This document shows positions 1-55,458 of a stretch of 64,000 bases of DNA, piece by piece. A program made the position numbers and the translations under genes. Where the stretch lies: positions 38,166-102,165 of the forward strand of contig DEEY01000002.1 of assembly GCA_002350545.1 (NCBI GenBank), written 5' to 3'. Within the stretch, counting starts at the first letter, position 1; every line of letters starts with the position of its first letter. Origin of the DNA: Candidatus Saccharibacteria bacterium UBA2866. GTDB taxonomy: Bacteria > Patescibacteriota > Saccharimonadia > Saccharimonadales > Saccharimonadaceae. The notes beneath the pieces are model-generated. The model worked only from the letters and a program-made list of their open reading frames with translations, had not been told where the DNA came from and did no database searches.

Positions 1-789
1 TCCTCTACTAATCGCCAAATTGTTCGTGTGGGATACACCTACAATTCCACTTTTGCAGAAAACACTTCCAAATCAGACACCATCGCTAATATCTTTGGCA
101 GTAATTCTAGTCCTGAAAAAAACAATGTTCGTTCTGATATTAAGAAATATATTGAAGATGACTGGTATTCAGGTGCTATAGGAGCAAGTAGTGGCCATGA
201 CTACACATCAAAACTAGAAGCTAGCGCTGGTTACTGTAATGACCGTACTATGAATACAACTAATAGCTGGACTACTCCACTTGCTGAGTCCACTACTATA
301 GCTTCTACTTATGGTACATCAGGCCAACAGGCTTACTATTTTGGCGCTTATCCTAGAAATGCAAATGCTGCTCAATCACCATCCCTTACCTGTGGCAATA
401 AATATAGTCAAATAGACCGTAGTACTGTAGACCTTTACCGTTATGTATCTAGTAGCACTACTGACTATACTTCCAATGAACTTAAATACCCAGCTGCTCT
501 ACTTACTGCCGATGAAGCTGCCTTTGCTGGCTCTGGCTATTCCTCATCTACTACTCCTTATCATGCTAATTCCTATTTGCGTTCCGGTTCTTACTTTTGG
601 TTGCTGTCCCCTTACTACCGCAACTCGAACGGTTATGCTCGCGGCTTCAACCTGAGCTCGAGCGGCAATCTCTTCAACTACAACGTCAACAGCGCGCCTG
701 GTGTGCGTCCCGCCATTTCCCTCACCTCTGGAACTATGGCTGCAAGTGGTACAGGAACAGCGACAGATCCGTGGATAGTAAACCCGTAA
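1..789 (+). CDS. 5'-truncated Ser/Thr/Tyr-rich surface protein with a C-terminal C-type-lectin-like (WLLSP...GVRPAISL) domain; probable DGR target
   Basis: Frame is open from base 1 to TAA at 787-789. The C-terminus FWLLSP...GVRPAISL...GTGTATDPW resembles DUF6273/CLec-type DGR target domains. Confidence 0.7.
   Translation, partial: SSTNRQIVRVGYTYNSTFAENTSKSDTIANIFGSNSSPEKNNVRSDIKKYIEDDWYSGAIGASSGHDYTSKLEASAGYCNDRTMNTTNSWTTPLAESTTIASTYGTSGQQAYYFGAYPRNANAAQSPSLTCGNKYSQIDRSTVDLYRYVSSSTTDYTSNELKYPAALLTADEAAFAGSGYSSSTTPYHANSYLRSGSYFWLLSPYYRNSNGYARGFNLSSSGNLFNYNVNSAPGVRPAISLTSGTMAASGTGTATDPWIVNP
598..723 (+). other. Candidate DGR variable repeat (VR)
   Basis: 25 of 42 codons end in C and none in A, with many AAC/NNC codons; it ends in GTGCGTCCCGCC. 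Only 7 of 40 codons at 301-420 of the same gene end in C. Confidence 0.6.
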
Positions 790-800
790 TTCTCACCCCC

Positions 801-829
801 TTGCATTTCCACCTCAAAAGAGGTATAAT
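801..829 (+). promoter_or_regulatory. sigma70 promoter of the rpsF-ssb-rpsR-efp operon
   Basis: TTGCAT-17 bp-TATAAT. Confidence 0.8.
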
Positions 830-834
830 AGAAC

Positions 835-920: not shown

Positions 921-1271
921 ATGAAAGATTACGAACTCTCTGTCGTGTTTCATCCCGATCTCGAGATGAATCTCGACCCCGCCCTTGACAAGGTGAAAAA
1001 GGTCATCGAGTCAAATCAGGGTAAAATCATCAAAGAGGAGAACGACGGTAAAAAACGTCTCGCCTATAAGATTGACGGCCAAGAATTTGGCGTCTACTAC
1101 TATTTTGACCTCCAGCTTCCAGCCGAAGCCCCATCCAAAATCAGTAGCACCTTTAACATTACTGATGAGATTTTGCGCTATCTTCTCGTCAAAGCTGACC
1201 CTAAAAGGCAGGCAGCCAAACCAGTGGAAGAGCCAGAATCAGAATCAACCACTAATCAAAAAGGAGAATAA
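921..1271 (+). CDS. rpsF: 30S ribosomal protein bS6
   Basis: MKDYEL...GKKRLAYKI...ILRYLLVK motifs; rpsF-ssb-rpsR synteny. Confidence 0.97.
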   Translation: MKDYELSVVFHPDLEMNLDPALDKVKKVIESNQGKIIKEENDGKKRLAYKIDGQEFGVYYYFDLQLPAEAPSKISSTFNITDEILRYLLVKADPKRQAAKPVEEPESESTTNQKGE

Positions 1272-1972: not shown

Positions 1973-2533
1973 ATGTACGGACCAACAGATCTTAAGAAAA
2001 ACACTCTTATAACTTTGGATGACCAACCGTATAAAGTGGTGGAATACTCCCAAAAAGTTATGGGTCGCGGCGGCTCTATCGTCAACGTCAAGGTCAAAAA
2101 CTTGATTACCGGCGCCTTGCTCCCTAAAACTTTCAAGGGTCAGGAAAAAATCGAACCAGCAGAAGTTACTACTCGCAAAGTTCAATACCTCTATAAGGAT
2201 GACGAAAAGTTCTACTTTATGGACCCAGAAACTTTTGAGCAGTATGAGTTAGCTAAAGACATGGTTGGTGACGCTGATGATTTTATGAAGGAAGGTGACG
2301 AGATGGAAATTCAGTTCTATAACGGTACTCCCATTAATCTCCAACTTCCTAAAAATCTTTGGCTCAAAGTCACCTACACTGAATCAGTGGTTAAGGGTGA
2401 TACTACCAGCTCAGTCATGAAGGATGCTACACTCGAAACCGGCCTCGTGATAAAAGTCCCAGCTTTTATCAAAGAGGGCGACATCGTTTCAGTTGACACT
2501 GAAACCTACGCTTATAGGGAACGAAAGAAATAG
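1973..2533 (+). CDS. efp: Elongation factor P
   Basis: VMGRGGSIV loop, KGDTTS and LETGLVIKVPAFIKEGD motifs. Confidence 0.96.
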   Translation: MYGPTDLKKNTLITLDDQPYKVVEYSQKVMGRGGSIVNVKVKNLITGALLPKTFKGQEKIEPAEVTTRKVQYLYKDDEKFYFMDPETFEQYELAKDMVGDADDFMKEGDEMEIQFYNGTPINLQLPKNLWLKVTYTESVVKGDTTSSVMKDATLETGLVIKVPAFIKEGDIVSVDTETYAYRERKK

Positions 2534-2536
2534 AGG

Positions 2537-2653
2537 AAAAATCAGAAATAGTGCTTTGAGGGGCTCTCAAGAGTTACGACCGAGAATGAGGGCGCTTCGC
2601 CCGTGACGACGGGCCGAAGCGACCCGTCCCCGAAAAGCACTATTTTGATTTTT
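2537..2653. repeat. Intergenic palindromic element, subfamily 1 (related to the ileS insert)
   Basis: Arms AAAAATCAGAAATAGTGCTTT / AAAAGCACTATTTTGATTTTT. The core shares ACCGAGAATGAGGGCGC and GCGACCCGTCCC exactly with 37368-37419. Confidence 0.85.
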
Positions 2654-2663
2654 AATTTAACTC

Positions 2664-2692
2664 TTGCATTTTATAGTTTTTAAGCTTATAAT
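2664..2692 (+). promoter_or_regulatory. sigma70 promoter of the pil operon
   Basis: TTGCAT-17 bp-TATAAT, 7 nt before ATG 2700. Confidence 0.75.
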
Positions 2693-2699
2693 AGATAGT

Positions 2700-3746
2700 A
2701 TGAATTTATTGCATGGCGTGGGCGATTTCTTCTCGCTTGATATCGGGACAAATTCGATGCGAATCGTACAGCTTTCTGGCGATAGCCAGCATGGTTGGAC
2801 GCTTCAGAGATTTGCTTATGTGCCAATCGACCAAAAACTAACCGCCGATTCGTCTGCCCTCGGCAAAAAACGCCTCGGTGAGGCCATCATGGGTGCCGTT
2901 GTCCAGGCTGGTATTCGCACCAAAAACGTTGCTCTTGGCCTTCCTGCTAATAAGACTTTTACATCCATCGTTGAGACCGAAACTATTCCTGACAAAGAGC
3001 TTAAAAAATCCTTCAAATATGAAATTGATAAATACGTGCCGATGGCATTAAGTGATGCCAAAGCAGATTTTATTATCCTCGGTCCCAGTCCAAACGATCC
3101 AGCTAAGACTGAAGTATTAGTTAGCTCCATTGCTAAGGACTATGCTGAATCCACCATGGAGACTATCGAAAAAACCGGTCTTAACATTGTCGCCATGGAG
3201 CCTGAACCATTAGCGATGGCGCGCGCACTTACTAACCCAGGTGCTATTGATGCTGTCATGGTAGTTGATTTTGGCGAAAACTCCACTGACCTCGTTATTA
3301 CCTTCAAGAATCAACCTCGCCTTGTCCGTTCTATTCCAGGTGGTTTTGGTGTATTAGTCAAAGCTATCGCTAGCGGCCTTAACGTCCGTGAAGATCAAGC
3401 CCGTCAATTTATTCTAAAATTTGGTCTCGATCAAAACCAAGTCGAAGGTCAAGTCTTCAAGATTCTCGATACCCACCTCGATAATTTTGCTTCCGAGCTT
3501 GCCAAATCCGTTCGTTTCTTCCAAACCAAATACATTAACGGTAAAGTCGGCGGCATTATCTTGTCTGGCTATGCTAGCGTGATCCCACTTTTTGCTAATT
3601 TCATTGAAGCTAAAACCAATATCTCCACCATGAATGGTAACCCGTGGCAATTTGTTCGTACCACTCCAGAGCAACAACAAATGTTGATGAATGTCGCCAG
3701 TGAATTCGCTGTCGCTATTGGTTTATCAGAAAGGAGCAATGACTAA
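2700..3746 (+). CDS. pilM: Type IV pilus assembly protein PilM
   Basis: Actin-like fold motifs LDIGTNSMR, VVDFGENST and ILSGY; first gene of the pil cluster. Confidence 0.93.
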   Translation: MNLLHGVGDFFSLDIGTNSMRIVQLSGDSQHGWTLQRFAYVPIDQKLTADSSALGKKRLGEAIMGAVVQAGIRTKNVALGLPANKTFTSIVETETIPDKELKKSFKYEIDKYVPMALSDAKADFIILGPSPNDPAKTEVLVSSIAKDYAESTMETIEKTGLNIVAMEPEPLAMARALTNPGAIDAVMVVDFGENSTDLVITFKNQPRLVRSIPGGFGVLVKAIASGLNVREDQARQFILKFGLDQNQVEGQVFKILDTHLDNFASELAKSVRFFQTKYINGKVGGIILSGYASVIPLFANFIEAKTNISTMNGNPWQFVRTTPEQQQMLMNVASEFAVAIGLSERSND

Positions 3747-4918
3747 TGGCTCACGAAATAAACCTTGTCCCTGATATCAAAAACGAGATGATTAAAACCG
3801 TCAAGCTTCGCAACTACATTTTCTTTGGTTGTATTGTAGTGGCTGCAGCTAGTGTGTTGCTTACCTTGATTTTTGGCCTCATTATGGGTGGCCAGCGCAT
3901 TGCTATCGAGAACAAAAAATCCACCCTCGGAGAACTTTCCGCCAAACTCAATTCCTATACCGATCTCAACGATTTTCTTACCATCAAAGATCAACTCGGT
4001 AATATCGACACTTTAACCAGTGATAAAAAGGTGCTTTCTCGGACTTTCAATATCCTTTCAGCCTTACTGCCTACTGGTGCTGATACCATCACGGTTTCTG
4101 AGTTAAACGTTAACCTCGCCGAAGAACAGCCCAGTTTCTCTTTGGAGGCTCAGGCTAATGCTGGTAAGGAACCATTCATTGACTACAACGTACTCGATTC
4201 TTTTAAAAAGAGTATGCAGTACATGCGCTATGATTACGGCTCTTATGTAGACAAAGAAGGGAATACCATACCGTCATATTGTATGATTGAGCAGGGCTCT
4301 GACGGCGCATTTCTGAGCGAGGGCGAAAAAGGCCTTTATGCCTACTGGACTATCGAAGGCGACGGCTGCAACCCCTCTGAGACACTCAAAACTAGCGACT
4401 ATGCCACCGAGAGTTATAACGATCAAACCGTCGTGCGTGTTTGGCGTACCCCACAATTTAACGATTGGTACAAAGAAAAAGAATCTAGTAACCAGCCTTA
4501 CATGAGTCTAGACGGCGAAATTAAAAATGTAGCACACTTTGAGAGTGCTTGCACCACCTACAGTGGCAGTGTCAATAACGGCTCTAGTCCTAAATGGGAC
4601 ACAACTAATGATTGTAAATTAGTCTATGGCTCCGGCGGCGAAGAAGGCACTGACGAAAGCGGCATCACTATTACTGAATCTTCTAACGGTCGTGATTCAT
4701 CAAACGAATTAGTTTTGCGCTTTTCTGCTAACATCACCTTAGCCCCGGAAGTTTTCCAGTTCACTAATACACATATGATTGCCGTTGCTCCATCTGGCCA
4801 ACGCAATGTTACTGATTCCTACGTCCAAATTCAATCTATGTTTGGGCAACGTGCCGCTGACTGTGCCGAAGGAGATACTGCTTGTAGCACCGCAAAAACG
4901 AATGAGAGGAGCAATTAA
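3746..4918 (+). CDS. PilN-like alignment protein with an extended extracellular domain
   Basis: EINLVPD motif, then a single TM and coiled coil; directly after pilM. Confidence 0.7.
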   Translation: MAHEINLVPDIKNEMIKTVKLRNYIFFGCIVVAAASVLLTLIFGLIMGGQRIAIENKKSTLGELSAKLNSYTDLNDFLTIKDQLGNIDTLTSDKKVLSRTFNILSALLPTGADTITVSELNVNLAEEQPSFSLEAQANAGKEPFIDYNVLDSFKKSMQYMRYDYGSYVDKEGNTIPSYCMIEQGSDGAFLSEGEKGLYAYWTIEGDGCNPSETLKTSDYATESYNDQTVVRVWRTPQFNDWYKEKESSNQPYMSLDGEIKNVAHFESACTTYSGSVNNGSSPKWDTTNDCKLVYGSGGEEGTDESGITITESSNGRDSSNELVLRFSANITLAPEVFQFTNTHMIAVAPSGQRNVTDSYVQIQSMFGQRAADCAEGDTACSTAKTNERSN

Positions 4919-4920
4919 TC

Positions 4921-5787
4921 ATGGCTAAAGAAATCGCAATCAGTAAACGACTCAAAATCTCTGAAGCTCAGAAATACATGTTGATATCTGTCTTGGTAGC
5001 CTCTATTTTCCTAGGCATAGCTATTTCTCTAGTTTCTTATTTCGTCCGCCAAATTTCCTTTAACACTAAAATCATCATGGCCGAAGAAGAAGCCATCGCC
5101 AATTATTCAAACGTTATCAAAAACACTGGCGCCTGTAAGGCTCCTAAAGGCAGCATTTACTCTAGCGAAGAGTTAGACAATTGCAATCCTGACAGCGTCG
5201 AAGTTTCTGAAGTCCCAAACACTTTGCGTTCTAGTATTCTCGAAGGCCTCGCCTCAAACGAAGCACTCAACTCCGTGCCAAGAGAAGAAAATTCCAGTTG
5301 TGTTAACCCAACCACTAACAAAAACTACACCTATAAAGAGCTCAGCAAAATCTATAAAGATGCCAATGGTAGTGAAGAACTTAACGCTGCTAGCCAGCTA
5401 ATTAAAAGCTGCTCTGCACTCCGGGTTATTCCAGATGCACTTCCTGCCTACAAAAACGAAGAAGCTTTGCTTGCTAGCTTAAACAAACTCTTTAATATTT
5501 CTAACTGGGAGCCAGAATCCATTAGCCCAAGCGGCAATACCGTCGAAGAAGAACTCCCTGCTGGGCTTAATGGCATCTCGGTCAACGTGTCGGTTGAAGC
5601 TAACTCCGGTACTACCATGAGCGTACTCAATAACATTGAGCGTTCCATCCGCGAATTCAATATAAAAACCGCAACTATTGAATGGAGCGGTAGCGATAAT
5701 CTCTTATTACAAGCTCAGGCCAATGCCTACTATATGGACAAATCCATCATCACCGAAACTAAGAAAACTATTAGGGAGGATAGCTAA
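4921..5787 (+). CDS. PilO-like alignment protein
   Basis: Single N-terminal TM; C-terminal LNNIERSIREFNIKTATIEW ferredoxin-like region; operon position. Confidence 0.65.
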   Translation: MAKEIAISKRLKISEAQKYMLISVLVASIFLGIAISLVSYFVRQISFNTKIIMAEEEAIANYSNVIKNTGACKAPKGSIYSSEELDNCNPDSVEVSEVPNTLRSSILEGLASNEALNSVPREENSSCVNPTTNKNYTYKELSKIYKDANGSEELNAASQLIKSCSALRVIPDALPAYKNEEALLASLNKLFNISNWEPESISPSGNTVEEELPAGLNGISVNVSVEANSGTTMSVLNNIERSIREFNIKTATIEWSGSDNLLLQAQANAYYMDKSIITETKKTIREDS

Positions 5788-6135
5788 ATGAAAAACGATC
5801 TCGCCACTGCCATTGTTGCTGCCATTGCCGGTGTAGTTATCTCATACTTTGTTTGTAATATGTTTGTCGGCACCTCTGGTGATTTCTCATTTAATTCAGT
5901 TGATGAATCAGTCAACAGTGATTTAGCTACGCCAAATCCAGAACTGTTCAATTATAAAGCCTTAAATCCTACCGTTGAAGTGTATGTAGGCGATTGTACC
6001 GAGGTTGATGTTTATGGTGAATGTGTTGACAATTCATCTGAACAGATCGAAGAAGACGTAATTGAAAACACAGATACCAACGAAGGTACCAACAACGCCG
6101 ACCAAAGGAACGACGATAATGGCAACACTGACTAG
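5788..6135 (+). CDS. Small membrane-anchored protein of the pil operon
   Basis: N-terminal hydrophobic helix and acidic tail; lies between pilO-like and pilB. Confidence 0.65.
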   Translation: MKNDLATAIVAAIAGVVISYFVCNMFVGTSGDFSFNSVDESVNSDLATPNPELFNYKALNPTVEVYVGDCTEVDVYGECVDNSSEQIEEDVIENTDTNEGTNNADQRNDDNGNTD

Positions 6136-7885
6136 GGAAGCTGAAGACCGTATTGTTAGTTTGCTTCTGGCCGAGGGGCTTGCTGATGCGAATTTAGTTA
6201 ATAGCATCAAGGTTCAAGCAGAATCTGCCGGTAAACCTGTTCTTGACGAGCTAATTAATGGTAAACTCATCAATGAAGATATGGTTGCTCGCGCTACAGC
6301 TGCTATCATTGGTGTACCTTATGTAGAGCTCAAAAACATCACCATCGATCAGGATACTCTCAGTAAAATTCCTGGCGACGCCTCCTCGCGTGTTCTTGCT
6401 GTTGCTCTTGGCGAAAAAGACGGTATGTTAAACGTTGCTATGGTTGATGTTACCAACGTCCAAGCTACCGATTACTTATCAAATCTCATTAATCAACCAA
6501 TTAGAGTTTGGATGTCTTCCGAACGAGGTATTCGTGAAGTCCTCGAGCAGTATCATGGTGATTTTTCTAGCGTCAAAGAGGCCGTTGACGAAACTAATGA
6601 AGAAATCGCTGAGGAAAATGCCAGCTCCAACGTTAAAACTATTGTTCAAGATTCGCCAATTAGTAAAGCTCTTACCACTATTCTTAGCTATGCTGCTAAA
6701 ACCAAAGCATCCGATATCCACATTGAGCCTCTCGAAAATTCGCTTATTATTCGGTGTCGTATCGATGGCGTTCTTCGCAAAATCATGGAACTTCCAAAAA
6801 CTGTTGCTCCAGCCTTAGTCTCACGTATTAAAATTCTGTCTAACCTCAAAATTGACGAACACCGCATCCCTCAGGACGGCCAGTTCACAGTTTTAGTTGA
6901 TGATCAAGAGATTGATCTTCGTATCGCCATCTCACCAGTTACTTGGGGTGAGCAAGTTGTAATTCGTTTGCTTGATAAAACCGGTGTTTCGATGGAAATC
7001 GAAAAAATGGGTATGAGTGGCCGTGCTTTACGGGATGTTCTAAATGGTATTAAGCAACCAAATGGTATGATTCTTACCTCTGGTCCTACTGGTTCTGGTA
7101 AGTCTACCACTCTTTATGCCTTGATTCAGCAAATTAAATCCGAACAAATTAACATTGTAACTCTAGAAGACCCAGTTGAGTATAAAATGGACGGCATCAA
7201 CCAAATTCAAGTTAATGTCGATGCCGGGCTAACTTTTGCTTCCGGTCTCCGCTCTATCCTACGTCAGGATCCTGATGTAGTGATGGTCGGTGAGATTCGT
7301 GACTCCGAAACTGCAGGCCTCGCTGTTCAAGCCGCCCTTACCGGTCACCTTGTCTTTAGCACTCTCCACACCAATTCAGCTGCTGGTATTTTACCTCGTC
7401 TTCTTGATATGGGTATCGAACCATTTCTTCTTGCCTCTACGTTAAATGTTGTGATTGGCCAGCGCCTCGTTCGTCGTATTACCGAAAAGCGTGAAATGTA
7501 TAAATCTTCCGAAATTGAAACCAAGGGTATTAATGACATCGTTGGGAATCTCTTGCCGCAAGACAAAGAATCGGTAGCTCAAGTTAGCGAAGATCTTGGT
7601 TATCCAGGCCTGCCAGTCAAAAACGACGACCACTACATGCTTGCACGTGGCATCGATTCCAAAGAGACACCTGGTGGTTACAAGGGGCGTGCCGGGCTTT
7701 ATGAAACTATTACCGTAGACGAAGATATTCAGAAAACAATCATTAATCATTCTACCGCCAATGAAATCATGCGTCTAGCCAAAGAAAAGGGAACTATCAC
7801 CATGCGCCAAGACGGTATGCTAAAAGCTCTCTCGGGCATAACATCAATAGAGGAGGTTAACCGCGTAGCTAGTGACTTATCATAA
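6119..7885 (+). CDS. pilB: Type IV pilus extension ATPase PilB (GspE/PulE family)
   Basis: ASDIHIEP, GPTGSGKST Walker A, LRQDPDVVMVGEIRD; start moved to ATG 6119. Confidence 0.95.
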   Translation: MATLTREAEDRIVSLLLAEGLADANLVNSIKVQAESAGKPVLDELINGKLINEDMVARATAAIIGVPYVELKNITIDQDTLSKIPGDASSRVLAVALGEKDGMLNVAMVDVTNVQATDYLSNLINQPIRVWMSSERGIREVLEQYHGDFSSVKEAVDETNEEIAEENASSNVKTIVQDSPISKALTTILSYAAKTKASDIHIEPLENSLIIRCRIDGVLRKIMELPKTVAPALVSRIKILSNLKIDEHRIPQDGQFTVLVDDQEIDLRIAISPVTWGEQVVIRLLDKTGVSMEIEKMGMSGRALRDVLNGIKQPNGMILTSGPTGSGKSTTLYALIQQIKSEQINIVTLEDPVEYKMDGINQIQVNVDAGLTFASGLRSILRQDPDVVMVGEIRDSETAGLAVQAALTGHLVFSTLHTNSAAGILPRLLDMGIEPFLLASTLNVVIGQRLVRRITEKREMYKSSEIETKGINDIVGNLLPQDKESVAQVSEDLGYPGLPVKNDDHYMLARGIDSKETPGGYKGRAGLYETITVDEDIQKTIINHSTANEIMRLAKEKGTITMRQDGMLKALSGITSIEEVNRVASDLS

Positions 7886-7906
7886 CGCTTGTGGTAAAAT
7901 AGTATT

Positions 7907-8992
7907 ATGGAAAACAGTGGGCAATTACAAAACAATCTCAAAATCGAATCTTTGCTTGAAGAATGTATTCGCCGGAAGGCTTCAGATTTGCATCTTCAAT
8001 ATGGCCTACCGCCAATTTTGAGAATTGACGGTGCCCTTACTCCTATCGCTGGCAACAATGCCTTAAATGAAGAAACCGTTAAAAGTCTAATTTTTGCAAC
8101 TTTAGATGAAGAACAGCAAAAAATCCTCATGCAGGATAAAGAATTTGATTATTCCTTCGCCTTTGGTGATATTGCCCGTTTTCGTGTTAATGCTTTTCAC
8201 GAACGTGGTAAACTCGCCGCTGCCTTCCGCTTAATCCCTAATCAGATTAAAAGCATCAACGATCTTGGCATGCCTGCCATCGTAGAGACTTTCGCCGAAT
8301 TTCCACGCGGCTTAGTTTTGGTCACCGGCCCTACTGGTTCTGGTAAATCTACCACCCTAGCTGCTCTAATTGATAAGATTAATCGTGAAAAATCTACTCA
8401 CATTATCACGATCGAAGACCCAATCGAATTTACCCATAAATCGCAAAGGTCAGTCATCGCTCAACGTGAAGTTCACTATGATACTTTCAGTTTTGCCGCT
8501 GCACTCCGTTCAGCTCTTCGTGAAGACCCTGACGTAGTATTAATCGGTGAGATGCGCGACCTCGAAACTATTCAAGCCGCTATCACCATTGCTGAAACTG
8601 GACACCTAGTGTTCGCAACTTTGCACACTAATTCTGCCGCTCAGTCAATTGATCGTATGGTAGACGTTTTCCCGGCTCATCAGCAACCTCAAGTTCGCAC
8701 ACAATTATCTAACATATTGATGGCTATTTGTGCTCAGCGTCTCGTCCCGGCTATTGGAGGTGGTCGCGTAGTTGCTGCTGAAATTATGATCGCAAACTCA
8801 GCTATACGTGCTCTTATTCGTGATGGTAAAACACACCAGTTAGATACCGCTATCCAAACTGGCGCAGATCAAGGCATGCAGACTATGGATAGAACATTAG
8901 CCAAACTTGTCCAAACCGGTGTAATTACCTATGATTCCGCCCGCGAATTTGCCGTTGACATCAACGAGCTTAATCGATTAGTAAAGGGCTAG
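7907..8992 (+). CDS. pilT: Type IV pilus retraction ATPase PilT
   Basis: GPTGSGKSTTLAA, ALREDPDVVLIGEMRD, AIRALIRDGK, GMQTMD. Confidence 0.96.
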   Translation: MENSGQLQNNLKIESLLEECIRRKASDLHLQYGLPPILRIDGALTPIAGNNALNEETVKSLIFATLDEEQQKILMQDKEFDYSFAFGDIARFRVNAFHERGKLAAAFRLIPNQIKSINDLGMPAIVETFAEFPRGLVLVTGPTGSGKSTTLAALIDKINREKSTHIITIEDPIEFTHKSQRSVIAQREVHYDTFSFAAALRSALREDPDVVLIGEMRDLETIQAAITIAETGHLVFATLHTNSAAQSIDRMVDVFPAHQQPQVRTQLSNILMAICAQRLVPAIGGGRVVAAEIMIANSAIRALIRDGKTHQLDTAIQTGADQGMQTMDRTLAKLVQTGVITYDSAREFAVDINELNRLVKG

Positions 8993-8993
8993 C

Positions 8994-10196
8994 ATGAAGC
9001 GGTTTAAATATAAAGCCAAGGTCAAGGAGACTGGCAAAACAGTCAAAGGTACTATCCAGGCCGAAAACGAGCAATTTGCTGGTCGCCTTTTGATTGAACA
9101 GGGTTACATTCCTGAATCCGTCGCGGAAGAAGGGAATGGCATTTTTGGCAAAGAAGGCCGTGTCACTACCAAGGACCGCATTACCTTTACACGCCAGCTT
9201 TCCACGCTAATTGGCGCTGGCCTGCCACTTGCTACTTCACTTCGCACCGTTGCTGAGCAGACTCAAGGCAAAGCCATGAAAACTATCGTCGAGGAAATTC
9301 TCGCTAAAGTCGAAGCCGGTAAAAGTCTTCATGAAGCCTTTTCTGCATACCCCGACATTTTTAATGGTGTCTATCTCGCACTTATTCAAGCCGGTGAAAC
9401 TTCTGGTACTTTGGATCTCGCTTTGAAGCGCCTAGCCGATCAAGAAGAAAAAGATGCCGCTATGATGAGTAAAATCCGCGGTGCATTAGTATACCCTGGT
9501 ATCATTCTTGTAGTTATTATTGCCGTGCTTGCCTTTATGATGATTATGGTAGTCCCACAAGTCGAAGGACTTTACGAAGACATGGGCAAAGAATTGCCAG
9601 GCCTCACCAAATTACTTGTCAATATTTCCAATTTCTTTGGTCAGTTCTGGTGGCTGGTATTACTTATGGTTGTTGGTATTATTGCTGCAGCGTGGTATGC
9701 CGTCAAGAAAACTCCAGCTGGTCGTAAAGTCGCCGATGGTTTCAAGCTTAAAGTTCCAATTTTTGGAGGGTTATTCAAAAAACTTTACGTTTCACGTTTT
9801 GCTCGTACGGCCGAGATGATGTTAGCTACCGGCGTGCCGATGCTAGATTCTGTTAAAATCGCTATTGACTCAACCTCTAACGTTGTAGTCGAGGAAGAAT
9901 ATAGTAAATCTCTCGACATCATCAAAGGTGGTAAAGCGCTTTCCGAAGGACTCAAAGATCGCAATTATATGTTGCCTCTAGTTCCACAAATGGCGAGCAT
10001 CGGGGAAGAGTCCGGTAAAATTGACGAAATGCTAGGTAAAGCTGCCCAAGTCTATGAAAACGAGTTAGACGAACAAATCAATAATATTTCTACTATGATT
10101 GAGCCAGTTCTTATGGTGATTATGGCTGGTCTTATTGGCGTCGTCGTAGGCGGTACTTTGCTTCCAATTTACTCCCTCGTCAATTCCGTTGCGTAA
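8994..10196 (+). CDS. pilC: Type IV pilus platform protein PilC (GspF family)
   Basis: Two T2SSF repeats (FTRQLSTLIGAGLPL; GEESGKIDEML) and three TMs. Confidence 0.95.
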   Translation: MKRFKYKAKVKETGKTVKGTIQAENEQFAGRLLIEQGYIPESVAEEGNGIFGKEGRVTTKDRITFTRQLSTLIGAGLPLATSLRTVAEQTQGKAMKTIVEEILAKVEAGKSLHEAFSAYPDIFNGVYLALIQAGETSGTLDLALKRLADQEEKDAAMMSKIRGALVYPGIILVVIIAVLAFMMIMVVPQVEGLYEDMGKELPGLTKLLVNISNFFGQFWWLVLLMVVGIIAAAWYAVKKTPAGRKVADGFKLKVPIFGGLFKKLYVSRFARTAEMMLATGVPMLDSVKIAIDSTSNVVVEEEYSKSLDIIKGGKALSEGLKDRNYMLPLVPQMASIGEESGKIDEMLGKAAQVYENELDEQINNISTMIEPVLMVIMAGLIGVVVGGTLLPIYSLVNSVA

Positions 10197-10266
10197 AAAA
10201 CTCTTGATTTTTAGCATAAACTAGTTTATTATAAACATAAGGATAAAATCTAGAAAGGATTTATTT

Positions 10267-10773
10267 ATGACTAAATTAAATACAAAATCTAAGAAAGGCT
10301 TTACTATCATTGAGGTCTTCTTGGTGCTTGCTATCGCCGGTCTTATCTTCTTGATGGTTTTCGTGGCTTTGCCAGCCCTCCAACGTTCACAGCGTGATAC
10401 TCAACGGCGCGACGACCTTGCCCGCGTCGCCACTGCGGTAACCCAATATCAGACTAATAACGGCGGCAAATTACCAGGAGCGGGCAAAGAAAGCAACCTA
10501 ATCAATAACTATCTTGGCGGTAGTGAATTCGTTGATCCAGATGGCGCAGCATACAACATCACTATTATCGATGGAACTACCGGACATACCTATGATGCCT
10601 CCAACGGTAAATATGCAAAAGGTACTCTAGAGTTTGGTGACCATACAATTTACTTAATCCATAAAGCTTTGTGTGACGGTGAAGTTTCAACCCAGTCAAA
10701 CGCACAAGCTCGTAGCTACGCTATACTATACAAGCTAGAGGGAACAGGTACTTACTGCGCGGATAACCAGTAA
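10267..10773 (+). CDS. Type IV pilin, probable major pilin
   Basis: KKG|FTIIEVFLVLAI class III signal peptide; SD GAAAGGA; own terminator. Confidence 0.9.
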   Translation: MTKLNTKSKKGFTIIEVFLVLAIAGLIFLMVFVALPALQRSQRDTQRRDDLARVATAVTQYQTNNGGKLPGAGKESNLINNYLGGSEFVDPDGAAYNITIIDGTTGHTYDASNGKYAKGTLEFGDHTIYLIHKALCDGEVSTQSNAQARSYAILYKLEGTGTYCADNQ

Positions 10774-10794
10774 CCTGACATTGCACAACAGAAT

Positions 10795-10822
10795 AAAGCG
10801 GCAATCGCCGCTTTGTTTTTTT
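10795..10822 (+). terminator. Intrinsic terminator between the convergent pilin genes
   Basis: AAAGCGGC-AATC-GCCGCTTT followed by GTTTTTTT. Confidence 0.8.
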
Positions 10823-10836
10823 ATGCCTAGTCTTAT

Positions 10837-11391
10837 CTAACTGTTTTCACAGTATATTCCACCACCTTCGAGCTTGTATAACACTGCAATCTTTCTTGGG
10901 TTTGACACTTTTACTGCCCCAGTGGCTTCATCCCCCGAGCATTTAGCCTCCAACAGTACATACATTCTAAATTCATTCGGGAAAGTACTGCCTGTCACAT
11001 CCTCTGCGCTTGGGCAAGTCTCACCAGTTGTACCTGTCCCGCAGGTCACAACATTCAGGCTGTATTCCTCTCCACTACTTGGGTCCTCAAAACCATCCCC
11101 CATATAATCTCTCAAAAACCCCGACCAATCCGTCTTAGTATATTTCTCTCCAGTCGCTTTATGGATGTCACTACCAGTCCCGCTTGGCAATGACCCGCGG
11201 TTATTTGTTTGGTACTTCTTTACTGCTGAAATTAGAGCTGTAATATCTTCTTTCCGCGCCGTATCCCTTTGTTGCCTTTGCAATGCCGGCAACGCAATAA
11301 ATATCATCAAGAATATCAAACCCGCAATTGCGAGCACAAGCGACACTTCGATTATTGTAAACCCCTTAAGACTAAAATCACCCTTTTTCAT
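10837..11391 (-). CDS. Type IV pilin paralog
   Basis: LKG|FTIIEVSLVLAI signal; C-terminal YKLEGGGIYC similar to the first pilin. Confidence 0.9.
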   Translation of the reverse strand: MKKGDFSLKGFTIIEVSLVLAIAGLIFLMIFIALPALQRQQRDTARKEDITALISAVKKYQTNNRGSLPSGTGSDIHKATGEKYTKTDWSGFLRDYMGDGFEDPSSGEEYSLNVVTCGTGTTGETCPSAEDVTGSTFPNEFRMYVLLEAKCSGDEATGAVKVSNPRKIAVLYKLEGGGIYCENS

Positions 11392-11420: not shown

Positions 11421-11497
11421 TAGCATAAACACCTTTTCGAGGACCGTAGGCTTGGGCGAACGCCCTTGAGTGTGTCCGAGGAAAGGTGTTTATGCTA
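11421..11497. repeat. Intergenic palindromic element, subfamily 2
   Basis: Perfect 16-bp arms TAGCATAAACACCTTT / AAAGGTGTTTATGCTA. The 44-nt core is 40/44 identical to 26924-26967. Confidence 0.88.
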
Positions 11498-20053: not shown

Positions 20054-21727
20054 ATGGAAGAAATCAGGGAACAACTTAAAAAAGTTATTCAAGACCTTTA
20101 TGGCCTTGATTTTGCTCCCGAACTTACTCCTTCACCAGATAACATCGATGCTGATTATTCCACTAACGCCCCCTTAAAGCTCGCTAAGGAATTACACAAA
20201 AACCCAATGGAAATTGCAGAAGAAATCAATAGCAAATTAAATGCAAGCATTACTCCCCCTGGTTTTATCAACTTTGTTTTGCCGGATAGTTATCTAGCAG
20301 AGCAGATTAACAAATTAACTGATAATTTTACCGACAGTGTTAAATCCGACGAGTTTAAAGACAAAACGGTAATTTGCGAATTCAGCGATCCCAACCCCTT
20401 CAAAGTTCTCCACGTTGGCCATCTTTATACCAGTGTCGTTGGTGATTCTATTTCTAGACTTTTTGAATATGCTGGCGCCAATGTCATCAGGGCTAACTTC
20501 GGTGGCGATGTCGGACTCCATGTCGCTAAAACCATGTATATTTTGCAAAAAAAACCAATCGATACATTAACTATCGAAGACATTGCTAAATGTTATGTCG
20601 AAGGCACCGCCGCTTATGATGAAGATGAAGCTGCCAAGCAGGAAATCACCAAACTCAACAAGGAAATTTACAAGATTAATGCCGAGAAACTTCACAATAC
20701 GCCACTAGCTGAATTATACTGGAAAGGCAGGGAATTGTCTTACGACTACTTCCGTAATTTCTATGACCAAATCGGCGTCAAATTTGATAAATTCTACCCT
20801 GAATCTACTGTTGCGGGACTCGGCCTTCAAACTGTCAAAGAACAGCTCGATAAAGGCGTCTACCAAATATCTGACGGGGCTGTCATTTTCGATGGCGAAA
20901 AATACGGTCTCCATACCCGAGTGTTTATTAATCAAGAAGGTGTCCCCACCTACGAAGCTAAGGATGTCGGCCTCATCTTTACCAAATGGGACGATTACCA
21001 TTTTGATAAATCAGTTGTCATTACCGGCTCTGAACAAAAAGAATACATGGCAGTAGTTTTAAAATCAGTTGAACAATACGCCCCAGAACTCGTTGAACGC
21101 ACTACTCATCTCACCCATGGCCTTGTTAAACTTCCTGGTAACATCAAAATGTCTTCTAGAAAAGGTAATTTCCTTAAAGCCGTGGATGTTCTAGATATGG
21201 TCAAGGATGAATTAAAGAGCGAATATGATTCAAGCGACGAAACTGTCGCTCTCGCCGCTACCAAATATGCCTTCCTCAAATACAAAATGGGCGGCAATAT
21301 CATCTTCGACCCCAAAGAATCCGTCAAGATGACCGGCAACTCCGGTCCCTACCTCCTCTACTCCGCTGTCCGCGCCAAAAAGATTTTGTCAAAAGAATCT
21401 GAAAAGTTTCTCGGAGGGAGTAAGACTCGGGCTAGCGCCCCGGAGCGCTCCCGACGAGAAAGCTTTTCAGATTCTTATGAAAGGGCATTAATGAAGCGGA
21501 CGATCGAATATAAGGAGGTATTGACCGAAGCTGTCCATGAGATGGCCCCTCACAAATTAGCCAACTATCTTTACGAACTCGCCCAAGAATTTAGCCGTTT
21601 CTATGAAAACTGCCCAGTTATAGGCGCCGAAAACGAATCAGAACGCATTAAACTAGTCAAAATCTATCTCAACACTATGACTCACGGCCTAAACCTGCTT
21701 GGCATTAACATCCCGGAGGAAATGTAG
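20054..21727 (+). CDS. argS: Arginine--tRNA ligase
   Basis: EFSDPNPFKVLHVGH, KMSSRKG, GNSGPYLLY; start set after the extended -10. Confidence 0.96.
   Translation: MEEIREQLKKVIQDLYGLDFAPELTPSPDNIDADYSTNAPLKLAKELHKNPMEIAEEINSKLNASITPPGFINFVLPDSYLAEQINKLTDNFTDSVKSDEFKDKTVICEFSDPNPFKVLHVGHLYTSVVGDSISRLFEYAGANVIRANFGGDVGLHVAKTMYILQKKPIDTLTIEDIAKCYVEGTAAYDEDEAAKQEITKLNKEIYKINAEKLHNTPLAELYWKGRELSYDYFRNFYDQIGVKFDKFYPESTVAGLGLQTVKEQLDKGVYQISDGAVIFDGEKYGLHTRVFINQEGVPTYEAKDVGLIFTKWDDYHFDKSVVITGSEQKEYMAVVLKSVEQYAPELVERTTHLTHGLVKLPGNIKMSSRKGNFLKAVDVLDMVKDELKSEYDSSDETVALAATKYAFLKYKMGGNIIFDPKESVKMTGNSGPYLLYSAVRAKKILSKESEKFLGGSKTRASAPERSRRESFSDSYERALMKRTIEYKEVLTEAVHEMAPHKLANYLYELAQEFSRFYENCPVIGAENESERIKLVKIYLNTMTHGLNLLGINIPEEM
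21393..21476. repeat. Palindromic element in frame inside argS
   Basis: Arms AAGAATCTGAAAAG / CTTTTCAGATTCTT. The core resembles subfamily 2 and encodes ESEKFLGGSKTRASAPERSRRESFSDS. Confidence 0.85.
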
Positions 21728-26567: not shown

Positions 26568-27554
26568 ATGAAACGAATTCTTATTGTTTATAACCCCCGT
26601 TCTTCTCGTTATGCTGAGGTCAAAAAAGAAGTACTAGAACCGATTCATAGTCTTAAAGGGTATATCATCGGTAAATACGAGGTTAAACCCTCAAATCTTG
26701 ATGACAACATTAACAATCTTTCTAAATTATTAAAAGATGGCGATCTTGTCATTTCAGCCGGCGGTGACGCCACTGGTGTTATTGCTGCAAACGCTATCTT
26801 AAAATCCAAAAAAGACGTAACACTATCTGTTTTGCCTTTTGGCAATTTTAACGATCTCGCCCGCACTCTAGGAACTAACACCTTGAGCGAAATTCTTGAC
26901 ACGGGTGGCCGAAACCTATCTTCCGAGGACCGTAAGCTCGGCCGAACGGCCTTGAGTGTGTCCGAGGAAGATAGGTTCGGACAGGCCCCGTGTCAAAAAC
27001 TTTATCCCCTAGAAATCTGGGTAGACGATAAATTCTTCCGCTACGCCACTTGTTACGTTACTATCGGCATGACCGCTTCCGCTGTCTATTTATACGATCA
27101 ACCCAAAATGCGCAAAAAACTAAGAACCAATTTCGGTCGCAAAATCAGCTCCTATACCGAACTTGCCAAATGGTATTTCAAAAATCGCCACAAAAAGCAA
27201 TTTCTTCCAGAGTTTACCTTAAATGGCGTCAAGCAACATCCTAAAACTTCTGACTATGCCGCTGTCAACGGCCGTTCTATGGCACGAGTGATGAAGGGTG
27301 GCGACGATTTTTTAAGGCCGCATCATTTTCGTCACGAAACTGACCGCCTTACTAGTTTCCCCCGTTTAGCTAAACTAATGATTAAAAGTATTTTTTATCG
27401 TATTCCTGGGACCGATACCACCGGTGATACTTTAGAATTTACTAATCCTTCCATCGTTGAACTCCAAGCCGAAGGCGAGCACACTATCCTAAAGAATATC
27501 AAAAAAATTGAAATCAAAAAAGGAACTAAATGCCTGAAAGTCATCACGAATTAG
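26568..27554 (+). CDS. Diacylglycerol-kinase-like (DAGK catalytic domain) protein
   Basis: VYNPRS, AGGDAT, LPFGNFNDLAR, QAEGE motifs. Confidence 0.8.
   Translation: MKRILIVYNPRSSRYAEVKKEVLEPIHSLKGYIIGKYEVKPSNLDDNINNLSKLLKDGDLVISAGGDATGVIAANAILKSKKDVTLSVLPFGNFNDLARTLGTNTLSEILDTGGRNLSSEDRKLGRTALSVSEEDRFGQAPCQKLYPLEIWVDDKFFRYATCYVTIGMTASAVYLYDQPKMRKKLRTNFGRKISSYTELAKWYFKNRHKKQFLPEFTLNGVKQHPKTSDYAAVNGRSMARVMKGGDDFLRPHHFRHETDRLTSFPRLAKLMIKSIFYRIPGTDTTGDTLEFTNPSIVELQAEGEHTILKNIKKIEIKKGTKCLKVITN
26896..26996. repeat. Palindromic element, subfamily 2, in frame inside the DAGK-like gene
   Basis: Arms TTGACACGGG / CCCGTGTCAA and CCTATCTTCC / GGAAGATAGG; core 40/44 identical to 11438-11481. Confidence 0.88.
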
Positions 27555-52205: not shown

Positions 52206-53133
52206 CGATTACGAAAAAGAAATCTTCTGCACTGTAGCCGGTACTACTAACGGTGATGATTTTGAGGTTCCAGCTGGTGCCTACAACTTCCGCGTCAACG
52301 GTAAATCTGTCGGTCGAAACTCTACTAAAAATATCGATGTAAAACCTAAAACCGACAAATCCGGCCTTGATATCACTATCAAGCCGGGTACCAAAAACGA
52401 GCAAGTTCATATACCCGTTGCCATTAGCGCCACCGGTATCAAGGAAGCGGTTTACAACGATTTTCATATTGGCGACAACTCTGAGGTCACCATTATCGCC
52501 GGTTGCGGCATTTATAATTGCGGTCCCACTGATTCAGTGCACGATGGCATCCATCGTTTTTACATTGGTAAAAATGCGAAAATTAAATATATCGAAAAGC
52601 ACTACGGTTTTGGTCCCGGCAGGGGAGGGAAGATTCTTAATCCTATCACCGAAGTCCACTTAAAGGAAAATTCCGAAGCTATTCTAGAACTCGAACAAAT
52701 CAAAGGTGTCGACTCCACTATTCGTAAAACCACCGCTGATTTGGACAAGAACACTAAACTCATCGTCAAAGAACGCTTATTCACTCACGGGCGCCAAACT
52801 GCCGAATCGGTTTACGAAGTGGTATTAAACGGCAAAAACTCCACTACCGACATCGCTTCTCGCTCCATCGCGCAAGATTTATCTAAACAAACCTTCAAGG
52901 CCACCATCATCGGCAACAACAAATGCCGTGGTCACTCCGAATGCGACGCTATCCTCATGGACGAAGCCGAAGTTCACGCTATTCCCGCCCTAGACGCTAA
53001 AACTAAAGATGCCGAACTAATTCACGAAGCCGCCATCGGCAAAATTGCTAGCGATCAAATCAAAAAACTAATGACGCTCGGCCTCACCAAAAAACAAGCT
53101 GAAAGTAAAATCATCAACGGCTTCCTTCGTTAA
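52195..53133 (+). CDS. SufB/SufD-family Fe-S scaffold (short form)
   Basis: Beta-helix character; GHSECDAIL and LIHEAAIGKI motifs. Confidence 0.85.
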   Translation: MELNDYEKEIFCTVAGTTNGDDFEVPAGAYNFRVNGKSVGRNSTKNIDVKPKTDKSGLDITIKPGTKNEQVHIPVAISATGIKEAVYNDFHIGDNSEVTIIAGCGIYNCGPTDSVHDGIHRFYIGKNAKIKYIEKHYGFGPGRGGKILNPITEVHLKENSEAILELEQIKGVDSTIRKTTADLDKNTKLIVKERLFTHGRQTAESVYEVVLNGKNSTTDIASRSIAQDLSKQTFKATIIGNNKCRGHSECDAILMDEAEVHAIPALDAKTKDAELIHEAAIGKIASDQIKKLMTLGLTKKQAESKIINGFLR

Positions 53134-53262: not shown

Positions 53263-55458
53263 ATGTTCAAGAGAATCGTCAAGAGAGACGGAAAAATCGT
53301 AAAATTTGATCCTGAGAAAATCACCGAAGCCATTGCTAAGGCTGGTCTTGCTACCGAAGAGTTTAAATATGATCGCGCTAAGGCCCTGACTGATAAAGTT
53401 ATTGCTCGCGCTGATGAGAAAATCACTGCTCGTACCCCAAACGTTGAACAAATCCAGGACATCGTAGAAGAAGTTTTGATGGAATCTAGCTTCAAAAAGA
53501 CTGCTCGTGAATATATTCGCTATCGTCAGGAGCGTTCACGCCGCCGCGAAGCCAAATCTGATCTCATGATGGTATACCGTACCATTAGTCATGCTGATGC
53601 CTCCGAAGACTCTGATGTCAAGCGTTCTAACGCTAACGTTGACGGTAACTCCGCCATGGGTAAAATGCTTCAATTTGGCGCCGAAGGCTCTAAGGTTTTC
53701 GCGAAATCATTGTTGCTCCGTCCTGACATTGCTGCCGCACATGATAATGGTGATATCCATATTCATGACCTAGACTTTTATGCTACTGGTACATTGACTT
53801 GTTGTCAATCTGATCCATTTGTAATGTTTGAAAACGGTGGCTTTAACACTGGTCATGGCCACTTAAGGACTCCGAATTCCATTGGTTCTTATGGCGCATT
53901 AGCGGCCATCCTTCTTCAAGCCAACCAAAACGAGCAACACGGTGGTCAGTCCATCCCTAACTTTGATTATGCTATGGCCCCAGGCGTCAATAAATCATTT
54001 AGAAAAGCCCTGAAACGTAACCTCAAAAAATATAACAAGTTCACCGGTAAGAAACTCGACCTTGAGATTAAAGATACTTATGAATACGGCAACGATGATA
54101 AACTGAAAAAAGCTAAATGGCCAAAGGAGATCATCGAGGCGTCTAACGAGGACGTCGAACGTGAAACCCTTCAAGCTATGGAAGGTTTCGTCCATAATCT
54201 TAATACCATGCACTCTCGCGCCGGTGCCCAAGTACCATTTACTAGTATTAACTTTGGTACTGATACTAGCCCAGCTGGTCGCTTAGTTTCAAAGTACCTG
54301 CTTGAAGCTACGGCTAATGGTCTAGGCAAAGGCGAAACGCCAATCTTCCCAATTAGCATTTTCAAGGTCAAAGAAGGCGTTAATTATAATCCGGAAGATC
54401 CTAACTACGACCTCTTTAAACGCTCTATGGAAGTATCTGCTAAGCGCTTGTTCCCGAACTTCTGTTTTATCGATGCTCCGTATAACCTCAAATATTACAA
54501 AAAAGGTGATTATCGTACTGAGATTGCTACCATGGGCTGCCGTACTCGTGTCTTCGCCAGTATCTTCCCAGAATCTGACGGCATCGTTACCGGTCGTGGT
54601 AATTTGTCATTTACCACTATCAACCTCGTCCGCATCGGCATCAAGCATGGCATCTGTCTCGGCGAGCGCAAAGAAGCCGACTGGGACGGTTTCTACAAAG
54701 AACTCGACGAGAAAATGGACCTCGTGAAAGACGAGCTCCTCGAGCGCTTCGAATTCCAAGCCAACCAACACGTTCGCAACTTCCCATTCCTCATGGGGCA
54801 AGGGAACTGGTTCGGCTCCGAGAAACTTGGTTGGAACGACACTCTTCGCGATGTCATCAAGCATGGTACCTTATCGATTGGCTTCATTGGCCTTGCTGAA
54901 ACTCTCGTAGCTATGACCGGCAAACATCACGGTGAAGACGAAGATTCGCGCGAACTTGGCCTTGATATCATCACTTTCATGCGCGAAAAATGTGATAGTT
55001 ACAGCAAAAAATACAAACTCAATTTCAGCCTTCTTGCCACTCCAGCCGAAGGTATTGCCGGCCGCTTTACCAAGATTGATCGCAAAGAATTTGGTAAAAT
55101 CAAAGGCGTTACTGATAGGGAATTTTACACCAATTCCTTCCACGTACCAGTTTACTACCCAATTAGTGCGTTCGAGAAAATCGAAATCGAAGCCCCTTAT
55201 CATAATCTTTGCAACGCCGGCCACATTACCTACATCGAATTAGACGGCGATCCATCCCAGAATATCGCTGCCTTCGAAGCTGTCATCCGTAAAATGCACG
55301 ACGAAGGTATCGGTTACGGCTCCGTCAACCACCCAGTTGATCGCGATCCAGTCTGTGGCTTCTCCGGTATTATTACTGGCGAACGTTGCCCACACTGTGG
55401 TCGCCTTGAAGGGGATGTCCCATTCGAAAAAGTTTGTAACTGCGCGAAAGGTAACTAG
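53263..55458 (+). CDS. nrdD: Class III anaerobic ribonucleotide reductase lacking the C-terminal glycyl-radical motif
   Basis: ATP-cone, HIHDLD, QVPFTSIN, TMGCR, ATPAEG, C-terminal CxxC; no RxxGY(L/I). Confidence 0.88.
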   Translation: MFKRIVKRDGKIVKFDPEKITEAIAKAGLATEEFKYDRAKALTDKVIARADEKITARTPNVEQIQDIVEEVLMESSFKKTAREYIRYRQERSRRREAKSDLMMVYRTISHADASEDSDVKRSNANVDGNSAMGKMLQFGAEGSKVFAKSLLLRPDIAAAHDNGDIHIHDLDFYATGTLTCCQSDPFVMFENGGFNTGHGHLRTPNSIGSYGALAAILLQANQNEQHGGQSIPNFDYAMAPGVNKSFRKALKRNLKKYNKFTGKKLDLEIKDTYEYGNDDKLKKAKWPKEIIEASNEDVERETLQAMEGFVHNLNTMHSRAGAQVPFTSINFGTDTSPAGRLVSKYLLEATANGLGKGETPIFPISIFKVKEGVNYNPEDPNYDLFKRSMEVSAKRLFPNFCFIDAPYNLKYYKKGDYRTEIATMGCRTRVFASIFPESDGIVTGRGNLSFTTINLVRIGIKHGICLGERKEADWDGFYKELDEKMDLVKDELLERFEFQANQHVRNFPFLMGQGNWFGSEKLGWNDTLRDVIKHGTLSIGFIGLAETLVAMTGKHHGEDEDSRELGLDIITFMREKCDSYSKKYKLNFSLLATPAEGIAGRFTKIDRKEFGKIKGVTDREFYTNSFHVPVYYPISAFEKIEIEAPYHNLCNAGHITYIELDGDPSQNIAAFEAVIRKMHDEGIGYGSVNHPVDRDPVCGFSGIITGERCPHCGRLEGDVPFEKVCNCAKGN

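Follow-up and report, generated by a model that had tools for sequence, protein, structure and literature searches.

The window analyzed here, a 64,000-nucleotide stretch of contig DEEY01000002.1 of Candidatus Saccharibacteria bacterium UBA2866, opens on the 3′ part of a long gene that is followed by the rpsF operon. A preliminary description, made from the letters of the window, proposed that the last folded domain of the encoded surface protein holds a probable DGR variable region (VR) at 598-723, and that it is a remote target, with no template or reverse transcriptase (RT) nearby. The locus raises the question of whether a VR-like segment that stands apart from any cassette is a genuine DGR product and, if so, which template (TR) wrote it and whether that template still rewrites it. 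Positions refer to the window unless a contig is named, and the features discussed below are collected in Table 1.

Table 1. Features of the window, cassettes on related contigs and genomic contexts of the target family
Feature	Position (strand)	Description	Basis or loci
Target gene, 3′ part	1-789 (+)	262 codons, frame 1, open at the left window end, stop at 787-789	ORF list
VR/TR homology block	578-713 (+)	matches L018 TR 1572-1707 at 86% and L023 TR 302-437 at 88%	blastn against TRs
Diversified core	592-698 (+)	37 template-adenine positions, almost all in the first two codon positions of NNC/NNT codons	
IMH-like 3′ boundary	700-723 (+)	GGTGTGCGTCCCGCCATTTCCCTC	direct sequence comparison
rpsF	921-1271 (+)	first gene of rpsF-ssb-rpsR-efp	ORFs and Pfam labels of identical genes, L001-L007
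TR-type sequence		TGCGTTCCGGTTCTAACTTTTGGTTGCTGTCCCCTAACAACCGCAACTCGAACGGTAATGC[G/T]AACGGCTTCAACCTGAACTCGAACGGCAATCTCAACAACAACAACGTCAACAACACGAATGGTGTGCGTCCCGCAC	
Cassette on L017		target; VR 6272-6422; TR 6728-6878; 154-aa ORF 7178-7642; 354-aa RVT_1 protein	L017
Cassette on L018		target 1-1308; TR 1572-1707; 153-aa ORF 2028-2489; RT 2490-3578 (362 aa); ftsH start	L018
Cassette on L020		full 736-aa target, TR, 153-aa ORF, RT, ftsH, pepN	L020
Cassette on L023/L024		last 30 nt of target, TR, 133-aa ORF, RT	L023, L024
Target-family context 1		upstream of rpsF	window, L001-L007
Target-family context 2		adjoins T4SS coupling-protein gene	L013
Target-family context 3		adjoins AMP-ligase gene	L014 = L008 in MAG RGIG5768
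Target-family context 4		adjoins cassette	L018, L020, L023

Codon usage at the 3′ end of the gene is suggestive but not decisive

The third bases of the 42 codons at 598-723 are C in 25, T in 9, G in 8 and A in none, against 44 C, 106 T, 41 A and 8 G among the 199 codons at 1-597 (Fisher p = 7e-6). GC content at 601-720 is 0.575, compared with about 0.40-0.45 upstream. Our recount returned exactly the numbers first reported for the segment (25/42 C-ending, 0/42 A-ending) and also the 7 of 40 C-ending codons reported at 301-420; the interleaved AAC, TAC, AGC and TTC codons and the terminal GTGCGTCCCGCC are likewise as described. We then slid a 42-codon frame along the 48 window ORFs of at least 200 aa, which gave 15,750 stretches. 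At least 25 C-ending codons occurred in 32 of them, and the combination of at least 25 C-ending with no A-ending codons was observed in only three stretches of the window's long ORFs, all at the 598-723 site.

Codon usage alone places the segment in a 0.2% tail, which is suggestive but not decisive. Because other stretches of the window are equally C3-rich, C3 richness alone is no VR marker in this genome, and we rejected codon usage as sufficient evidence for a DGR, given the comparable stretches at 21.2 kb and 52.8-55.3 kb. The preliminary description had itself cautioned that plus-strand genes here favor C-ending codons anyway. The other stretches, at 21227-21397, 52828-52962, 54613-54750 and 55207-55335, hold 25-29 C-ending codons of 42, and each has 5-8 A-ending codons.

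Related contigs carry a template and a DGR-type reverse transcriptase beside a sister gene

In the search for a template and an RT, we aligned the contigs from four gut runs (bovine or sheep) to the window at 80% likeness. Run X4 yielded a 4,071-nt contig with window 450-789 and a second copy of 578-713 placed 263 nt past the stop codon, and from run X3 came a 151-nt contig whose differences from the window are nearly all changes to A. A more distant cassette was found, via the distant homologue P0032, on a 72-kb Saccharibacteria contig (L017). A search with the L017 RT then led to P0061, which is encoded on the same 4,071-nt contig of X4 (L018). The canonical order of target, TR, an ORF of 133-154 aa and RT is present on the related Saccharibacteria contigs L018, L020, L023 and L017. 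The L018 target is 94.2% identical to window 1-789 at the nucleotide level without a gap, and the last 30 nt of the L023/L024 target are identical to window 760-789. The preliminary description had named a TR-like repeat and an RT as the things to look for in the genome or in relatives, and both were found in relatives.

The RTs that follow the TR in L017, L018, L020 and L023 are 354-364 aa long. P0061 has a Pfam RVT_1 match and the catalytic YMDD. Among solved structures, it matches the 328-aa 'Reverse transcriptase' chain of 8ub7-8ube best (E = 3.9e-26), well ahead of group II intron RTs (1.5e-11); we take the 8ub7 chain to be the Bordetella phage BPP-1 DGR RT. The IGAVTSQ of P0061 aligns to the IGSLTSQ of the 8ub7 chain (the IGxxxSQ motif), and group II intron, retron and Drt models score P0061 far below the family cut-offs. 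The small ORF between TR and RT is conserved in position (133-154 aa), and its L018 and L017 copies are 47% identical. It gave no Pfam, NCBIfam or PDB sequence match and no detectable similarity to known Avd; its position suggests that the 153-aa ORF may nonetheless be Avd. Two RT relatives, P0052 and P0058, were rejected as a cognate source: one contig has no TR, and the TR of the other (L022) is not cognate, its scaffold differing from the window at many non-A positions.

Allelic variation falls on template adenines

We compared strains by anchoring on the window's exact RpsF, which is encoded on many metagenome contigs, seven of which gave loci with flanks (L001-L007). L004 and L007 match the window exactly, L002 carries a second allele, and L001, L003, L005 and L006 carry a third. 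All seven are identical 3′ of 705, except at base 708 in L003 and at a few intergenic positions just upstream of rpsF in L001, L005 and L006. Upstream of about 577, the gene body is strongly diverged among alleles, with indels; over the whole target gene, amino acid identity between strains is 75-91%, with indels upstream of the VR. The differences among alleles at 613-699 fall almost only on codon positions 1-2 of NNC codons, and the interleaved codons are invariant.

For the adenine test, seven VR alleles or paralogues from other metagenome contigs were aligned, and the columns were classed by template base. All 37 template-adenine columns were variable among the seven, compared with 7 of the 99 non-A columns (Fisher p = 1.3e-26), and 37 of the 44 variable columns lie in codon positions 1-2. 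The cassette-adjacent VRs were also read against their own templates: L018 has 24 mismatches, all at TR adenines, and L020 has 22 at adenines and none elsewhere. The window VR shows 15 mismatches at TR adenines against each of the L023, L020 and L018 TRs, with one other mismatch against L023 (639, G to T), two others against L020 (702 and 705, inside the IMH-like end) and four others against L018. The window scaffold thus disagrees with its closest TR (L023) at base 639, where the window has T, and it resembles a mosaic of TR variants, L020-like at 585-669 and L018/L023-like at 702-705. Among strains and paralogues, at least eight distinct VR alleles were observed with conserved flanks. The diversified stretch begins slightly before the 598 of the preliminary description, the first template adenines corresponding to 592-593.

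With TRs and adjacent DGR-type RTs on related contigs, and with allele variation on TR adenines, we consider that 578-713 is very probably a DGR variable region of the target gene, and we would put the probability at about nine in ten. The pattern of mismatches further suggests that a TR of the L023 type wrote the window copy.

Some contigs of X3, X4, X7 and X8 bridge window 633-699 with 68 unalignable letters where the window has 65. These variants are VR alleles one codon longer, with a core too diverged to align; a one-codon-longer VR is also found in L010 of MAG RGIG5912.

The variable region ends in an IMH-like boundary

The window VR and the cassette-adjacent VR of L018 share the same 3′ boundary, GGTGTGCGTCCCGCCATTTCCCTC. 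At the corresponding place the TRs read GGTGTGCGTCCCGCACTTTCAC, an IMH*-like divergence from the VR at 714-715 and beyond 719, and this difference between VR and TR holds for the window, L018, L020 and L023. By analogy with the Bordetella phage paradigm, 700-723 would act as IMH. No stable hairpin follows it, as the preliminary description had cautioned: window 695-830 folds no better than shuffled sequences (z = -0.75). L018, L023, L008 and L014 have, about 30 nt past the stop codon, a GC stem closed by a 4-nt loop (AGCGAGC-N4-GCTCGCT), which the window lacks. An IMH-adjacent hairpin or cruciform, a feature of BPP-1-type target recognition, is not known to be universal among DGRs.

The target is a predicted surface protein with a DUF6273-like domain

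The full-length target gene encodes 734 aa (L004:7665-9869, on a contig identical to the window). At its N-terminus, basic residues are followed by a hydrophobic segment that ends ...GTSQVHA|TAS; this segment would serve as a signal or anchor, and export is consistent with it. Judged by its sequence, the target is probably a secreted or surface protein of ruminant-gut Saccharibacteria. A weak match to the Listeria-Bacteroides repeat was also observed in the protein.

The VR sits in the last folded domain. Pfam DUF6273 covers it with a match over aa 190-242 (E = 0.006) that scores 16.8 bits against a gathering cut-off of 23.5, and some target homologues have precomputed PF19789 matches. We built an AlphaFold2 model from 32 homologues (mean pLDDT 79.8) and searched it with Foldseek. 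The best PDB match of the model was 9qa6, a Thomasclavelia IgA peptidase (probability 0.92, E = 0.012) whose N-terminal domain is annotated DUF6273, and the best BFVD matches were phage DUF6273 proteins (E = 0.011). No match in PDB or BFVD reached E <= 0.001, and classical CLec (CD23) appeared only at E = 9. On the strength of the model and the profile match together, a DUF6273-like fold for the VR-bearing domain is plausible. In gut phages, DUF6273 is a C-type-lectin-like DGR target domain (PMC10743442). The preliminary description spoke of C-terminal CLec domains as DGR targets; the domain here is DUF6273-like, which others call C-type-lectin-like, and a canonical CLec is not evident in the fold search.

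One JGI homologue, P0030 (385 aa), has the VR-bearing domain followed by a second domain with a precomputed match to PF09603, the Fibrobacter succinogenes major paralogous domain. The last residues of P0030, GGYVRCV, recall another lectin-like ending of the DGR-target type.

Unlinked paralogues share the VR scaffold

We scanned the GTDB representative genomes with a degenerate pattern of the invariant VR scaffold and found five further VRs, every one of them in a sheep-gut MAG of Candidatus Saccharibacteria or Nanosyncoccus. One of these relatives, MAG RGIG5912, has three VR-bearing genes, each on a contig of its own, which shows that the genome of a relative can hold several targets. Members of the target family were observed in at least four genomic contexts (Table 1). 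In the AMP-ligase context, the 75 nt after the target stop codon (L014:2941-3015 and L008:7046-7120) are 93% homologous to the pre-TR spacer of L023 and include the stem-loop AGCGAGC-GAAA-GCTCGCT, and the AMP-ligase gene begins immediately after. This 75-nt remnant looks like the scar of a lost DGR cassette, left beside what would have been a cassette-adjacent target.

The cassette appears rare and the alleles recur unchanged

By repeat search and by sliding comparison with an inferred TR, no second VR copy or TR was found in the 64-kb window or the 10 kb upstream of it. Among window and flank ORFs of 150 aa or more, a scan for YxDD/SQ motifs found no RT. The statement that no template or RT lies nearby thus holds from 10 kb upstream to 63 kb downstream. 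At the window locus itself, rpsF lies directly 3′ of the target gene and there is therefore no cassette downstream. Neither a TR nor an RT was found in the 10 kb upstream in L001-L004 or on the contigs that could be tied to the window's genome. The pattern scan of GTDB representative genomes gave no TR, the IMG/VR viral contigs matched neither the VR nor the TR pattern, and the JGI metagenome contigs gave no match to the TR pattern. The loci around the target homologues P0001, P0002, P0003 and P0010 represent other genomic contexts, without a cassette. We chose ftsH as a query for the window's strain since it follows the cassette in L018; a search with the FtsH N-terminus returned only short contigs at <=78% identity.

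The presence of the TR in each run was judged from TR-like contigs that align to the window VR, and contigs of this kind show presence, not absence. On this basis, the TR-diagnostic bases (A at 640 and A at 674) were observed in only X3 and X4 of 12 runs, and they are absent from the runs and contigs that hold the window allele (X1, X5, L004 and L007). The window allele, at a depth of 16x in X1 and 4x in X5, is identical in L004, L007, X1 and X5, and the L002-type allele is unchanged in L002, X1, X2, X6, X7, X8, X15, X16 and X19. In X1, three VR alleles occur together at similar depth (16, 15 and 12x) with three different downstream flanks. Three alleles also coexist in X2; they are assignable to different loci or strains and recur across studies. 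P0061 and the RTs closest to it (P0054, P0056 and P0057) were each found on one or two Logan contigs, whereas the collection lists the window's exact RpsF in 88 blocks. The organism was absent from the raw-read runs X21-X23. Together, the rarity of the RT, the recurrence of the alleles and the absence of the TR from the window-allele runs favor a rare cassette and static VR alleles.

Origin and present state of the window copy

In the mechanism that we propose, the TR RNA would be copied by a DGR RT that misreads adenines (mutagenic retrohoming), and the cDNA would replace the part of the VR that begins at about 578-592 and ends at the GC-rich IMH (about 700-713). Each of the 37 template adenines, nearly all of which occupy codon positions 1-2 of AAC/AAT codons, could become any base while the scaffold stayed fixed, and about 18 codons would be recoded in the ligand-binding face of the DUF6273-like C-terminal domain. 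In related strains, the cassette (TR, a 153-aa ORF in the Avd position, and RT) stands directly downstream of a sister gene copy, so that the window copy is a non-adjacent target. The identity of the IMH probably lets the element act in trans, and recombination among paralogues may additionally move alleles.

Two readings do without ongoing retrohoming at this gene. Ordinary diversifying selection on a surface protein with Asn/Tyr/Ser/Gly-rich loops and a local codon bias would be in keeping with the other parts of the window that reach at least 25 of 42 C-ending codons and with the high divergence of the whole gene between strains; selection, however, would not confine change to the 37 adenines of an external repeat and leave 92 of 99 other columns invariant, nor would it explain the fixed third positions and the TR copies beside a DGR-type RT. 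We regard this non-DGR reading as effectively refuted by the comparison of VRs with TRs. Recombination or gene conversion among the paralogous targets (rpsF-, T4SS-, AMP-ligase- and cassette-linked), as the main source of the variation in place of ongoing retrohoming, also seems improbable to us, if less so. The near-identical 3′ ends of the paralogues (window 699-789) and the VR flanks would be good substrates, the same VR alleles recur widely, and the mosaic-like window scaffold is what such exchange might leave. Yet gene conversion moves alleles and cannot create an adenine-specific pattern, so that a DGR is still needed as the source, and no VR allele common to two different loci was found here.

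Given a DGR origin, the window copy may still be an active remote target, with one cassette elsewhere in the window's genome, for example upstream of ftsH beside a sister target, that rewrites the VR in trans via the shared IMH, as happens in Treponema denticola. The IMH-like end shared with the cassette-adjacent VR of L018, the 30 nt shared with the cassette-adjacent target of L023 and the three targets of the RGIG5912 relative all argue for this, as does the depth in X4, which is similar for the cassette contig (6.9x) and for the contigs with a window-like rpsF flank (about 6x); moreover, the cassettes lie on short contigs that break at repeats and are easily lost from bins. Against it stand the absence of TR markers from X1 and X5, which hold the window allele, and from eight other runs, the identity of the window allele across the four data sets given above, the persistence of the L002-type allele without change in at least nine, and the scarcity of the closest RTs relative to RpsF. 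Furthermore, the window has T at 639 where sister alleles in the same runs have G, and a single active TR would homogenize this base. We therefore consider an active remote target possible but doubtful. The remote target of the preliminary description stands insofar as the copy adjoins no cassette, but the only contigs found to carry the cassette are short and come from other strains, and its placement in the same genome is opposed by the lack of a TR on the contigs of the window-allele runs and by alleles that are static across samples. [quoted passage not shown]

A wider reading of these loci is offered tentatively, and we would not bet on it at even odds: one compact DGR would serve at least three to four unlinked paralogous surface genes, the presence or absence of the cassette would be polymorphic, and most circulating strains, that of the window included, would have lost it and would hold frozen alleles. 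As part of the same tentative reading, the frozen alleles would have been diversified earlier and would persist across animals and studies, and rare cassette-bearing strains would make new alleles.

Comparison with known systems

Taking the related loci into account, the sequences indicate that the mechanism is the known DGR mechanism, the main hallmarks of which are found through those loci. Similar to the BPP-1 DGR (mtd VR, TR, avd, brt), the related loci show a target with a 3′-terminal VR, then TR, small ORF and RT; VR and TR differ only at TR adenines (24/0 in L018, 22/0 in L020); the VR ends GC-rich and slightly unlike the end of the TR (IMH versus IMH*); and the RT shares IGxxxSQ. Unlike the phage-borne BPP-1 system, the Saccharibacteria system is cellular, its target domain is DUF6273-like where Mtd has a CLec, the 153-aa ORF is without sequence similarity to bAvd, and the window VR has neither a hairpin right after the IMH nor a cassette beside it.

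Paralogous targets with one VR scaffold at unlinked loci are also a feature of the Treponema denticola DGR (TvpA and others), and non-adjacent, remote DGR targets are known (Wu et al. 2018, PMC5758913). In contrast to those targets, the window VR is matched by TRs on related contigs and not on contigs of its own genome. The survey took as targets sequences with only A-to-N differences from the TR, minor exceptions allowed (PMC5758913); the window has 15 A-to-N differences and one exception. CPR DGRs are mostly single-target (PMC5758913), so that a Saccharibacteria DGR with several targets and loss in some strains would extend that pattern modestly.

The DUF6273 targets of gut phages (Tentaclins and Faecalibacterium prophages; PMC10743442, PMC11792537) likewise carry the VR in a globular domain of the DUF6273 type. 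They differ from the window in that the matches of the latter stay below the Pfam gathering score and short of a Foldseek E <= 0.001. Moreover, rather than a receptor-binding protein of a phage, the Saccharibacteria target is a cellular surface protein of 734 aa with the domain at its C-terminus.

DGRs of CPR/Patescibacteria and DPANN were reportedly described by Paul et al. in 2017. As in those systems, a small-genome episymbiont would here diversify a surface protein with a compact DGR; what differs is the ruminant-gut lineage, the several paralogous targets and the apparent presence or absence of the cassette at strain level. As obligate episymbionts, Saccharibacteria have to attach to host bacteria, and a DGR-diversified, lectin-like surface protein is an obvious candidate for host recognition or phage evasion. 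The VR scaffold is common to unlinked paralogues, the cassette stands beside only one of them and is seemingly missing from most sampled populations; this combination suggests that, in genomes as tiny as these, targeted hypermutation may be episodic and limited to certain strains. A VR-like segment with no RT nearby can be a true DGR product, and such segments escape annotation that takes the RT as its starting point.

Other features of the neighborhood

A type IV pilus cluster lies directly downstream of efp at window 2664-11000, close to the diversified surface protein, and comprises a PilM-like protein, PilB/MshE, a PilT-like ATPase, PilC/T2SSF and a prepilin with an N_methyl motif.

The window also contains two kinds of intergenic GC-rich repeat. 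The first occurs in two copies, 90% identical, at 11435-11483 and 26921-26969, which form the same long hairpin (z-scores -4.5 and -5.5) and match no Rfam family. Their differences are compensatory in the outer stem (CACCUUUUC/GAAAGGUG versus CUAUCUUCC/GGAAGAUAG) and in the inner stem (GGGCGAACGCCC versus GGCCGAACGGCC). The second, a 91-nt repeat without an Rfam match, occurs at 2561-2651 (between efp and pilM) and at 37350-37440; the two copies are 75% identical and adopt a similar branched fold (z = -3.8 and -1.7).

Upstream of ftsK, one strain carries two serine-recombinase (Resolvase/Recombinase) genes (L002:767-4212). This strain-specific island lies about 6 kb upstream of the target gene, and its place is occupied in other strains by TsaD, a T4SS-pilin-like gene and others.
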